Origin: Candidatus Multivorans sp.
GTDB taxonomy: Bacteria > Acidobacteriota > Thermoanaerobaculia > Multivoradales > Multivoraceae
Assembly: GCA_965224025.1 (NCBI GenBank)
Contig: OZ245033.1
Location: forward strand, 512,001-576,000
DNA length: 64,000 nt
Reading direction: 5' to 3'
Each line of letters begins with the position of its first letter. The stretch's first letter is position 1. Position numbers and translations under genes: made by a program. This document shows positions 22,376 to 25,585 of the stretch, piece by piece. The notes under the pieces were generated by a model. It was not told where the DNA came from. It was given only the letters and a program-made list of their open reading frames with translations, and searched no databases.

Positions 22376-22690
22376 ATGCTGATTGCGACCACAGAGACGA
22401 TTGCCGGCCGGAACATCACCGAGACTCTGGGGCTCGTGCGCGGCAACACGATCCGCGCGCGACACGTGGGCAAGGACATCACCGCGGCCCTACGCAACCT
22501 GGTCGGCGGCGAGGTCACCGAGTACACCAAGATGGTGGCCGAGAGCCGCGAGCAGGCGCTCGACCGGATGGCCGCCCAGGCCGAGAGGCTCGGCGCCGAC
22601 GCCGTGGTCGCCGTGCGCTTCACGACCTCCGTGATCACGAGCGGCGCCGCCGAGCTGCTGGCGGTGGGGACGGCGGTGAAGCTGGACTAG
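22376..22690 (+). CDS. YbjQ/UPF0145 family protein
   Basis: LGLVRGNTIRARHVGKD...VGGE...SREQALDRM...GADAVV...GTAVKL. Confidence 0.9.
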   Translation: MLIATTETIAGRNITETLGLVRGNTIRARHVGKDITAALRNLVGGEVTEYTKMVAESREQALDRMAAQAERLGADAVVAVRFTTSVITSGAAELLAVGTAVKLD

Positions 22691-22947
22691 ATCCAGACCG
22701 GCGCTCCGCGCCGGATGCCGGCCGGAGGCCGGCGTACCTGTACCTTTCTCGGGTGGATTCTGGTGGGTCGTTGAGAGAGGTGGAATCGACCAGTAGCCGT
22801 CGCGGCTGCGGTAGCTGTGGGAAACCGGCTTGCCGGTTTTCCAAGGTCCGGCGGGAACGGTCTGCCGTTTTCCGCGGGACCGGCAGCTTCCGCAGCCGAG
22901 ACCGCCGGTCGGTTGCGTCTCCGGCCTGCCGGAGTCACTGAAGGAAA

Positions 22948-23102
22948 GTCGGCAAGCAGCCAGGAGCGACCACCGGCGTACTGTGCTTCGAGCACCTGGC
23001 TGGGACCCGTGCCCTGGCTGCTTCGCCGCGTTGGACGCCCAGTGGAGAGTCAGTGCCTTAGAGCACCAGTACAGGTACGGGCAGGCAACGCGGCATGCCG
23101 AC
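22948..23102 (+). ncRNA. IS110 bridge RNA core (target-binding and donor-binding loops)
   Basis: Closing stem GTCGGCA/TGCCGAC; two stem-internal loop-hairpin arms whose loop strands match the element's own target and donor junction sequences. Confidence 0.85.
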
Positions 23103-23137
23103 CAGGCAACACTACCGCAAGGGAGAAGGAGGACGAG

Positions 23138-24390
23138 ATGACCAGGACGTGGTTCGTCGGCGTGGACTGGGGGTCCGAGACCCACCACGTGTGTGTGCTG
23201 GATCGGGACGGCAAGGTGAGGGGGGAGCGGGCGTTCGACCACAGCGGCAAGGGACTTGCCGCCATGGCCGACTGGCTCCTTGGACATACCCGACCGACGT
23301 CTCCGGACGAGATCGGCGTCGCCATCGAGGTGCCGCACGGACCGGTGGTCGAGACTCTCCTGGAGCGGGGCTTCGCCGTGCATTCGATCAACCCCAAGCA
23401 GCTCGACCGCTTCAGGGACCGCTTCTCCGTCGCCGGCGCCAAGGATGACCGCCGCGATGCACGGGTGCTCGCCGCCGCGCTTCGCACCGACCCCGAGTGC
23501 CTGAACCGCGTGCAACCATCCGATGCCGCCATCGTCATGCTGCGCGAGGTGTCCCGCGCCCGCAAGCAGTTGGTCAACCAGAAGAACCGCCTGGAGAACC
23601 AGGTCCGCGACCAGCTCTGGCGCTACTACCCGCAGTTTCTCGCCGTGGTCAAGAACGAGGTGTCGGCGCCCTTCGCGCTGGCCTTGTGGCGACTGGCGCC
23701 GACCCCCGGCAAGGCTCGACGGCTGCGCGAAGCCACGCTCGCCAAACTGCTCAAGGAACACCGCATCCGGCGCCTGACCTCCGCCCAACTGCGCGATCAA
23801 CTGCGGGCCGAGCCGATCGCCGTTTCCCCGGACACCGTTAAGGCCGCCGTCGAACACATAGGACTCCTCCGGCCGGTGCTCGACACCGTCTGCCGCCAAC
23901 TCGCCGACGCCGACAAGCGGCTGGAGCGGATGACCCGCGCACTCGAGGCCCCGGCCCAACGGGAAAACGACGACGACTCCCCTAAGCCGAGCGACGCCGC
24001 CATCCTCAGGTCGCTGCCCGGACTCGGCAAGGTCGGCCTCGCCACCCTGCTCTCCGAGGCCGATCAAAGCCTGGGCCGCAGAGACCACGAGGCACTGCGT
24101 TGCCTCTGCGGAGTGGCGCCGGTGACCGTCAAGTCCGGCAAGAAGCTCATCGTCATGCGACGACTCGCCGCCAACGAACACCTCAGCGACGCCGTCTATC
24201 ACTGGGGACGAGTCGCCATCCAGCACGACCCGATCAGCCGCGCCAAGTACGACGCCATGAAAGCCCAGGGAAAGACGCACGGACGCGCCATCAGACAACT
24301 CGTCGACCGACTCCTCGGCGTCGCCTGCGCCATGCTCCGAGGCCGACTCTCTTCGACCCCAACAAGCGATGCCATGCCCAGGTCGCATGA
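23138..24390 (+). CDS. IS110-family DEDD recombinase; 1-nt frameshift near 24345 affecting the last ~15 codons
   Basis: VGVDWG, AIEVPH, KDDRRDA (DEDD); APVTVKSGK (catalytic Ser region); AGGAGG RBS; probable native end TLFDPNKRCHAQVA* is in another frame. Confidence 0.9.
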
Positions 24391-24451
24391 CCTCCCTGAC
24401 CCGCAGCAGCCTCCCCAAAACACACTTGCTAAAGGGTGGAGAGTCCCAGCA

Positions 24452-25585
24452 TCACTCGCCGCTTCGCGGCTCGTTGCGCAGGCTCATCCGCTCCAGCACG
24501 CCCGCGACGAGCAGCGGCCACACCAGGGTGGCATCGGCGGGAACTTCGGCGAAGCGGCCGCCTTCGGAGGCGGGGACGAACTTGCCCCAGGACACCCCTT
24601 CGCTGTAGCCGCAGCCGGAGAGGCCGCCCCAATGCTCCGGTTCCGGGCAGATGCGGACGCCGTAGCGGAAGCGCTGGGGATCGGCTTCTTCGCCGTCCCG
24701 GCGCGCCGCCGCCTCGAGATAAGGCGCGACCTGCTGCGCCCAGTTCCGCGGCACGCCGCCGCCGATCGTGAAGATGCCGAGCCGTACAGCGCCGGAGACG
24801 AGGTCCGTGTAGTGCTCCAGGTCGAGGAAGGGATCGAAGCGAACCGGCGCCAGCCCGCGCTGGCGGCGCGCCCGATTGAACAGCGCGAAGTCGAGTCCGA
24901 TCTCCGAGTCCGTGAACGCGGGCACATAGACGGGGACGCCACGGCGCCAGGCGGAGGAAAGCACACCGCGCACCGGCCGGTTCTGGCCCGGCTCCGCCTC
25001 CGCCGGTGAACCCTCGCCTTCGCCCAGCCACCGCCCGAACGCCTCGTTCAGAGTCCGCGAACAGGCGACCTCGCCCTCCGGCCACTGCTCCAGGATGGCG
25101 TGGACGATGAGCTCAACCCGGTCCAGGTTGCTCTCCAGCTCCAGCGTGTCGTAGATGCGGTCGAAACCGGCGTAGTACGCGGAGCGGTCGTCCAGCGCGC
25201 CGTCGCCCGCCGGGACCTTGAAGTGGACCATGCCGGCGGACTCGACGAAGCCGTGGACCATCAGGGCCCCGGTGCAGACGATCGCGTCGAGCAGCCCGTG
25301 GTCGATCATGTCGCACAGGACGAGCCCCTGCTTGGCCGCGGTCAACGCGCCGGTGAACGTGCCGACCACCAGGCAGTCCGGATCCACAGCCATGTCATGG
25401 AGCACGTCCGCCGCCTCGCCAAGCTGACGGCCCCCGAAGGAGGTCGACTTCATCGCCGCGAGCAGATCCGAGAAGGACTCGACGGAGCCCAGATCGAGAG
25501 CCTCGAGCGGTTCCAGTCCTTGGCCGTCGCCGAACTCGGTCGGGCGACGCGCGCCGCCCGAGGACTTGGAAGGTCGATCGCTCAT
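24452..25585 (-). CDS. Deoxyhypusine synthase-like protein (probable homospermidine synthase activity)
   Basis: TSFGGRQLGEA, DRIYDT, PAFTDSEIG, IGGGVPRNW, GGLSGC..SEGVSWGK. Confidence 0.85.
   Translation of the reverse strand: MSDRPSKSSGGARRPTEFGDGQGLEPLEALDLGSVESFSDLLAAMKSTSFGGRQLGEAADVLHDMAVDPDCLVVGTFTGALTAAKQGLVLCDMIDHGLLDAIVCTGALMVHGFVESAGMVHFKVPAGDGALDDRSAYYAGFDRIYDTLELESNLDRVELIVHAILEQWPEGEVACSRTLNEAFGRWLGEGEGSPAEAEPGQNRPVRGVLSSAWRRGVPVYVPAFTDSEIGLDFALFNRARRQRGLAPVRFDPFLDLEHYTDLVSGAVRLGIFTIGGGVPRNWAQQVAPYLEAAARRDGEEADPQRFRYGVRICPEPEHWGGLSGCGYSEGVSWGKFVPASEGGRFAEVPADATLVWPLLVAGVLERMSLRNEPRSGE

Follow-up and report, generated by a model that had tools for sequence, protein, structure and literature searches.

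The window analysed here, a 64,000-nt stretch of the genome of Candidatus Multivorans sp. (contig OZ245033.1, positions 512,001 to 576,000), carries an insertion sequence (IS) of the IS110 group which very probably moves by RNA-guided, conservative recombination with its own bridge RNA. The element is inserted between two convergent genes, one encoding a YbjQ-family protein (22376-22690, + strand; PF01906 at 5e-37) and the other a deoxyhypusine-synthase-family protein (24452-25585, - strand; PF01916 at 4.4e-67). It is 1708 bp long when one copy of its CC core is counted, and spans 22737/22739 to 24444/24446, with the core at 22737-22738, the terminal GAGAGT running to 24444 and CC again at 24445-24446. 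An earlier note, made from the letters of the window, had given the interval 22693-24450; the element does lie inside it, although as the extent of the element this interval is too wide, since it includes host flank. All the strings and coordinates of that note were found to be correct in the window sequence.

The left junction reads ...GGCCGGCGTA-CC-TGTACCTTTC... and the right junction ...GGGTGGAGAGT-CC-CAGCATCAC..., CC being the sole sequence common to both. At the orthologous ybjQ-side locus of a congener (G332), the element is absent and the sequence is ...GGATGCCGGCCGGAGGCCGGCGTA-CC-CAGCATCACTCG..., that is, left flank, CC and right flank. As this empty site carries one CC, it fixes both the boundaries and the 2-nt core, in agreement with the core named in the earlier note. 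A contig of sequencing run X5 also joins 22736 to 24445, skipping 1708 nt, a weak observation given its 2 ambiguous letters and a shorter side of only 23 letters. Several other joints found in the contigs of the four sequencing runs fall within the recombinase gene or in repetitive extragenic palindromic (REP) sequence. The right end comprises 54 nt (from the intact-frame stop at 24388-24390 to 24444), compared to 399 nt for the left end, and the ends (TGTACC... and ...GAGAGT), as read from the sequence, have no terminal inverted repeats.

The gene between these ends encodes a protein with the domains PF01548 (DEDD_Tnp_IS110, residues 7-165, 1.1e-34) and PF02371 (1.4e-12), which scores 174.3 bits (cut-off 140) with the NCBIfam model NF033542, "IS110 family RNA-guided transposase". 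Alignments to IS621 (8wt6, 2e-11) and to ISCro4 (9t56, 1.5e-9) match all five catalytic positions (D, E, D, D and S): D10, E64, D104 and D107 correspond to the acidic catalytic residues of IS621 and S333 to its serine (243 in the chain and 241 in the native protein; the numbering is from PMC11208158, with a 2-residue offset in the PDB chain allowed for). These five residues are invariant in 11 homologs. Judged by its sequence, the protein is an IS110 DEDD/Ser recombinase, the identity that had been proposed for it. The 90%-identity cluster of the intact recombinase (L003:1902-3152) also includes 304-aa TauD/TfdA dioxygenases from Acidobacteriota metagenome-assembled genomes (MAGs), which looks like a clustering artefact.

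We then examined the non-coding left end. The minimum free energy fold of 22948-23102 (-79.2 kcal/mol, z = -4.14, with 0 of 200 shuffles as stable) has the GUCGGCA/UGCCGAC closing stem, both outer stems and both inner hairpins of the three-way junction previously described, and folding the 399-nt left end in full (22739-23137, z = -6.09) leaves it as it is. Four segments of this putative bridge RNA match the element's ends and its flanks, and they line two internal loops, one segment to each 5′ or 3′ side, in the order published for IS621 (PMC11208160/PMC11208158; here and below, the cited papers are used in excerpt). In the first loop, CCGGCGTAC (22973-22981) is identical to 22729-22737, the left flank plus the first core base, and GCTGGG (22999-23004) is the reverse complement of CCCAGC (24445-24450), the core plus CAGC. 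In the second loop, GTGGAGAGTC (23042-23051) is identical to 24436-24445, the right end plus the first core base, and GTACAGG (23069-23075) is the reverse complement of CCTGTAC (22737-22743), the core plus TGTAC.

The extensions of the guides past the core, also noticed earlier, are present, with GCTGGGAC matching GTCCCAGC and GTACAGGTACG matching CGTACCTGTAC. By analogy with the excerpted account of IS621 (PMC11208158), these extensions would be the published handshake guides. In the window copy, the AC of the target loop is complementary to the donor GT (the last two left-donor bases) but not to the target TA, and the UA of the donor loop is complementary to the target TA (the last left-target bases) but not to the donor GT. 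Examined by eye, 8 of 11 aligned elements have a first donor-loop handshake base that complements the final base of the target, and 3 (G260, G260b and G088) do not.

In 10000 dinucleotide-preserving shuffles of 22759-23137, a match as long as the one observed was found 32 times for the left target guide (9 nt), 19 times for the left donor guide (10 nt) and 394 times for the right donor guide (7 nt). For the right target guide (6 nt), such a match is common when taken alone (2815 shuffles), as would be expected if the four matches were a product of chance in a GC-rich, repeat-rich region. However, three or four of the guide matches occurred together in 0 of the 10000 shuffles.

To compare the guides with those of other elements, 400 other genomes of the phylum were sampled, of which 9 have a relative at E <= 1e-40 (38-93% identity), with boundaries set from copy comparison and conserved end motifs. 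All 24 tabulated loci start with CC-TGTAC and end with GGTGG(G/A)(G/A)AGT-CC, and the flanks differ between families. At homologous positions, the left flank of each element is repeated in the same sense within its left end, and the right flank follows about 25 nt further on as its reverse complement (GTCCGCGCACC with TCTCTGGG, GGGGTCCC with GAAAAGG, and AAAGCCGC with CTGGAGGGG). When 8 target families were compared, the own-target scores added up to 120 (permuted mean 58.4), a total that only 1 of the 40320 permutations, the identity, reached. We also kept the best 80 of 527 relatives from a wider scan; by title, they are mostly Acidobacteriota MAG records (Candidatus Multivorans, Thermoanaerobaculia, Vicinamibacterales), with a few from Alphaproteobacteria, Rhodothermales, Binatota, Gemmatimonadetes and Spirochaetia and one Bifidobacteriaceae record. 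Of the 66 resolved elements, 46 have, at the expected offsets, a left guide that is 7 nt or longer together with a right guide of 5 nt or more. For 36 distinct targets, the own-target sum was 466, compared to 212.7 after permutation (standard deviation 19.9, maximum 314), and none of the 100000 permutations was as high. The permutation tests thus show guides that covary with flanks in the homologs, where the earlier note had named a lack of such covariation as evidence against its proposal. Elements whose targets differ have these matches at homologous positions, and the shuffle test and both own-target permutation tests refute a chance origin, to which we give a vanishingly small probability.

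Two observations on the homologs concern the core and the ends. In the genome G334, two loci of the same homologous element (L042 and L051) have the left junctions GCGAC-CC-TGTACC and GCGAC-CT-TGTACC, respectively, with a left target guide ...GCGACUC; this difference may be natural core variation or a wobble at the core. Five loci from Rhodothermales records (L124, L130-L132 and L135; 53-55% identity) are without the GTACAGG donor-guide anchor and have different ends, which the patterns used do not resolve.

The fold is conserved together with the guides. The consensus of 12 aligned homologous RNAs contains both outer stems and both inner hairpins, with 33 pairs, of which 8 are compensatory. 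Pairing is maintained in 96.7% of the cells, compared to 30-43% when the partners are slid by 1-3 columns; the covariation score was reached in 0 of 500 shuffles and the count of doubly-changed pairs in 2 of 500. The closing stem is compensatory by eye (GUCGGC/GCCGAC, CGGGC/GCCCG, GGGCC/GGCCC); the alignment is out of register there, and this stem was left out of the count. The internal copies of flanks and ends could alternatively act as DNA, either as recombinase-binding sites or by DNA-DNA pairing, given that the matches are known from DNA only and that the subterminal inverted repeats of the IS1111 relatives are DNA features (PMC11208160/PMC11208158). We consider this very improbable, since the stems framing the guides keep their pairing by compensatory changes, which suggests selection on a folded single strand. 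Moreover, the loop order is that of IS621, where the RNA is necessary in vitro (PMC11208160/PMC11208158), and the recombinase belongs to an RNA-guided family (NF033542).

We next looked at the target of the element and its distribution in the host genome. The left flank contains two REP-like hairpins, CCGGCGC-TCC-GCGCCGG (22698-22714) and GCCGGCC-GGA-GGCCGGC (22717-22733), and the left target CCGGCGTA (22729-22736) overlaps the 3′ arm of the second one. The REP-like repeat is present at many places in genomes across the same genus. In the host genome (5.14 Mb, 67.6% G+C) there are 12 full-length copies of the element at 97-100% identity, in addition to truncated or internally deleted ones, and all 12 have the junctions ...GCCGGCG[T/C]A-CC-TGTACC and GAGAGT-CC-C[A/G]G[C/T]. 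The genome has 17 occupied left junctions and 51 unoccupied 14-mers of the form CCGGCG[CT]ACCC[AG]G[CT], where composition would predict 4.0 and a first-order model 2.1, and 31 of these 51 free targets lie directly behind a hairpin arm. The commonest free target is CCGGCGCACCCAGT (38 sites); CCGGCGTACCCAGC, the perfect match to the guides of the window copy, is free at a single site. In the right flank of copy 10 (G000:C1:298600-298680), there are tandem free targets, CCGGCGCACCCAGT and then CCGGCGTACCCAGT 35 nt on, which form a small REP array directly after the occupied target.

According to the earlier note, the bridge RNA is programmed against a REP subfamily. The targeting of REPs is confirmed, and the restriction to a subfamily is only suggestive: the guides match the minor subtype CCGGCGTA-CC-CAGC perfectly, but the U at the variable position also wobbles with the major subtype. 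This guide position (22979) is U or C, the corresponding flank position (22735) is T or C, and the two agree in 9 of the 12 full-length copies, too few for a statistical test. In two copies a U guide faces a C-type flank and could form a U:G wobble with the bottom strand, and the other variants of the occupied targets (CAGT vs CAGC, CGG vs CAG) are wobble-compatible with the invariant right guide. In a related element in G349, all 4 copies have a U guide and their flanks have T, C, T and C. A hand tally of G000 and G349 places copies with a U guide in 4 T-type and 5 C-type flanks and copies with a C guide in 1 T-type and 8 C-type flanks, small numbers from closely related copies that are unfit for a test.

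The recombinase has an uninterrupted 417-codon frame in 10 of the 12 full-length copies, a count in which the frame of copy 12, which has a 2-nt insertion, was left unscored and which does not include the window copy. In the latter, one nucleotide is deleted after 24345. An unrelated tail thereby takes the place of the final ~17 residues (in other copies, DRTLFDPNKRCHAQVA), and the frame exits the element into host DNA, reading antisense into the deoxyhypusine-synthase-family gene as far as 25009. The frameshift reported in the earlier note is real, as the other copies and the contigs of runs X2, X4 and X5 have the extra base. The window copy probably relies on the recombinase of the 10 copies with the uninterrupted frame. 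We give an even chance to the possibility that the element and its RNA design are real and the window copy itself is decaying and non-autonomous, either moving only with the recombinase (and possibly the RNA) of sister copies or being already fixed. The lost segment aligns with a conserved C-terminal helix, ending ..FD.., in IS621 and ISCro4, and M399, L400 and D407 are invariant in the recombinase homologs. A second 1-nt deletion, after 22855, weakens a 94-nt structured module of the left end (-67.2 vs -69.4 kcal/mol), and action in trans is documented for IS621 (PMC11208160/PMC11208158) and ISPpu10 (bioRxiv 10.64898/2026.03.19.712850). However, all five catalytic residues are upstream of the frameshift, the window copy has kept its bridge RNA, its two ends and its two cores intact, and its guides fit its own flanks at 9/9 and 6/6 positions. 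In addition, two copies with a deleted left end (13 and 14) have the same frameshift allele, implying that it was propagated or exchanged, and the site at 22855 lies in a run of A, where a single-base error of the long-read assembly is possible.

The ends of the element also carry the two halves of a putative promoter. The -35 half starts 21 nt before the IS end and the -10 half 2 nt after the core, leaving a 17-nt spacer across the core, and in 11 of 12 homologous elements the pair that scores best has the identical geometry; several elements have TTGACA as the -35. The joined ends would thus rebuild a promoter, of the kind described for IS621 and ISPpu10 (PMC11208160/PMC11208158; bioRxiv 10.64898/2026.03.19.712850), although it is its sequence that is conserved and its activity is only predicted. 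A sigma-70 consensus scan of the integrated element gave no promoter-like sites. Two terminator-like sites are located on the minus strand inside the recombinase gene.

Between the -10 half and the bridge RNA lies the 94-nt module, which in its intact version folds at -69.4 kcal/mol (z = -8.6), with 37 consensus pairs, 6 of them compensatory. The module (22804-22897) hardly varies between IS110 left ends, even though the recombinases concerned share only 65-76% identity, and it has no Rfam match. The genome has about 18 copies of it; copies 13 and 14 of the element, and L022, lack it. A different repeated element of this genome also carries the module close to its ends, with 84-87% identity (L018:1516-1609, L019:1515-1608, L020:1515-1608). 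This second element is present at L018, L019, L020, L021 and L026 (G000:C1 near 3672584, 4048787, 2474161, 1301954 and 3408859, respectively), and its end region reads ...GTTGGCAACGCTCGGAAAGTGAGCCACC...GAGTGTACGCGAGTCTTCTCTCGTCGG... followed by the module. The features of the locus are collected in Table 1.

Table 1. Features of the IS110 element and its flanks, in window coordinates.
Feature	Position	Strand	Remarks and basis
Left half of REP-like target	22698-22736	+	Two hairpins; this context recurs before most copies and most free targets
Core CC, left copy	22737-22738	+	Junction comparison, G332 empty site, X5 contig
Left end, non-coding	22739-23137	+	399 nt; starts with the right donor TGTAC (22739-22743); boundaries from copy-versus-copy comparison
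-10 half of predicted junction promoter, TACCTT	22741-22746	+	Complete only with the right end joined to the left end
94-nt structured module	22804-22897	+	Outer stem and two hairpins, between -10 and bridge RNA; window copy without one A after 22855
Bridge RNA (predicted)	22948-23102	+	Closing stem; target-binding arm 22956-23023; donor-binding arm 23026-23094; fold and homolog consensus
Left target guide, CCGGCGUAC	22973-22981	+	Sense of the left target plus first core C, pairing with the bottom strand; 22979 is U/C
Right target guide GCUGGG (22999-23004), then putative handshake guide AC (23005-23006)	22999-23006	+	Sequence, homolog alignment
Left donor guide, GUGGAGAGUC	23042-23051	+	Sense of the IS right end plus first core C
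Right donor guide GUACAGG (23069-23075), then putative handshake guide UA (23076-23077)	23069-23079	+	Match continues through CG
IS110 recombinase gene	23138-24390	+	ATG at 23138; D10, E64, D104, D107 and S333 present; 1-nt deletion after 24345
-35 half of predicted junction promoter, TTGCTA	24426-24431	+	In the short right end
Left donor, GTGGAGAGT	24436-24444	+	Final bases of the element; sequence, copy comparison
Core CC, right copy (24445-24446), and right target CAGC (24447-24450)	24445-24450	+	Sequence, copies, empty site

By analogy with the published work on IS621 and ISPpu10, from which the production and binding of the RNA, the formation of a circle and the chemistry of strand exchange are taken, we propose the following cycle. 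The element would excise as a circle, in which the joining of the right and left ends would assemble the promoter (TTGCTA, a 17-nt spacer over the CC core, TACCTT), and this junction promoter would transcribe the left-end RNA and the recombinase mRNA. The 155-nt bridge RNA would then be bound by the DEDD/Ser recombinase. Its first internal loop would pair with both strands of the target CCGGCGTA-CC-CAGC, at the 3′ edge of the REP-like hairpin, and its second internal loop with both strands of the circle junction GTGGAGAGT-CC-TGTAC. Strand exchange would take place at the CC core, aided by the two 2-nt handshake guides, which would pair with the partner DNA only after the exchange. The proposal of the earlier note, a natural RNA-guided recombinase with a CC core and with this target and donor, is thus supported by the fold, the guides, their covariation and the protein family, features that point to such a system at the level of sequence.

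Several points weigh against RNA-guided movement of this element. The bridge RNA is known from the DNA sequence alone, and an Rfam scan of 22400-24800 on both strands (E <= 1) gave no matches to any family, so that the RNA is called from our own alignment. No circle junction was found in the contigs (contigs only) of the four sequencing runs. The left guides of the window copy cover only the first core base, the base that follows (a target-loop U or a donor-loop A) facing a core C, whereas all four guides of IS621 are reported to pair with both core bases (PMC11208160/PMC11208158). The right target guide taken alone is not significant in the shuffle test, copy 2 has a C guide in a T-type flank, which gives a C:A mismatch, and the recombinase frame of the window copy is broken. 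Between the putative promoter and the bridge RNA there are ~200 nt, including the very stable 94-nt structure, and a leader of this length could hinder transcription from the junction promoter; in homologs with short left ends, this distance is ~45 nt. In the wider set of homologs, 66 of the 80 loci were resolved and 14 were not, and the boundary patterns require CC, so that the constancy of the core in this set follows from the method. The own target is the best or tied best for only 19 of the 36 distinct targets, since many of the targets are near-identical variants.

We compared the element with the known systems. As in IS621 of Escherichia coli (Durrant et al. 2024, PMC11208160; Hiraizumi et al. 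2024, PMC11208158, as excerpted), the recombinase has a DEDD RuvC-like domain and a Ser-containing Tnp domain, the long left end upstream of the gene encodes the predicted RNA, and the target loop comes first and the donor loop second, each with the top-strand sense on its 5′ side and the complement on its 3′ side. A 2-nt core, a predicted promoter rebuilt over the joined ends and a REP target are likewise shared, and the guide extensions may correspond to the 2-nt handshake guides of IS621. However, the two proteins are only distantly similar, phmmer aligning no more than two stretches (E = 2e-11), and they differ in length (417 aa here, compared to 328 aa for the IS621 chain in 8wt6). The core is CC here and CT in IS621, the left guides of the window copy reach only the first core base, ~200 nt with the 94-nt module separate the -10 from the RNA, and the nearest related records are from Acidobacteriota and not from Enterobacteria.

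ISPpu10 of Pseudomonas putida (bioRxiv 10.64898/2026.03.19.712850, as excerpted) is similarly a multi-copy element which inserts in one REP class. Its REP target is reported as a conserved stem-loop, and the left target here overlaps a hairpin arm. ISPpu10 tolerates G.U/G.T wobbles at single guide positions, which fits the U/C, A/G and C/T variation at the occupied sites described above. Contrary to the case of ISPpu10, which has a CT core, the core here is CC, and the adjoining hairpin is present at 31 of the 51 free sites. The IS1111-group seekRNA elements (Siddiquee et al. 2024, PMC11187229, as excerpted) also have a DEDD transposase whose guide is an RNA of the non-coding region, and natural re-programming is reported among them. 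In that group, however, the RNA is downstream of the gene, the target-matching segments are reversed and there are long subterminal inverted repeats, whereas here the RNA is upstream, as in the IS110 type.

Bridge RNAs were predicted for 85.7% of the IS110-group elements in ISfinder (PMC11208160/PMC11208158, as excerpted). IS622 has a CT core, and the published tools considered here use CT or GT cores. In a literature search of main texts, no CC core was mentioned with IS110, and the supplements of the surveys, which list thousands of elements, may include this clade. A main-text search for three 11-nt end motifs gave, among the matches listed, only papers unrelated by title (primer-like, non-IS). 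In the published excerpts, bridge RNAs, their loop order, the strand rule, the presence of the core in the guides, handshake guides, REP targeting, wobble tolerance and natural retargeting are all already described. Only the CC core and the 94-nt structured module upstream of the RNA are unusual here, the other differences being the 417-aa protein and the half-core left guides.

Taken jointly, these features might belong to a distinct variant of bridge recombinase in an Acidobacteriota-centred clade, with a fixed CC core, a functional 94-nt module and a U/C retargeting in progress; we put this forward tentatively and consider it rather unlikely. In such a variant, the fixed CC core would be read by both right-hand guides and often half-read by the left-hand guides. 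The three-way-junction module between promoter and bridge RNA, common to an unrelated repeated element, would be functional, and it might serve in transcription insulation or termination, in RNA stabilisation or as a processing signal timing the production of the guide. The single U/C change in the left target guide would track two REP subtypes within one genome.

The understanding of the mechanism, described in 2024, is unchanged by this element. It does provide a clean natural example of bridge-RNA design: the genome has 12 copies and 51 free targets, the orthologous site is empty in a congener, and there are dozens of homologs. As these homologs have varied targets and near-constant donors, they are good data for guide rules outside Enterobacteria and Pseudomonas. 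A clade with a CC core and GC-rich targets could, in addition, extend the sequence space of engineered bridge recombinases.

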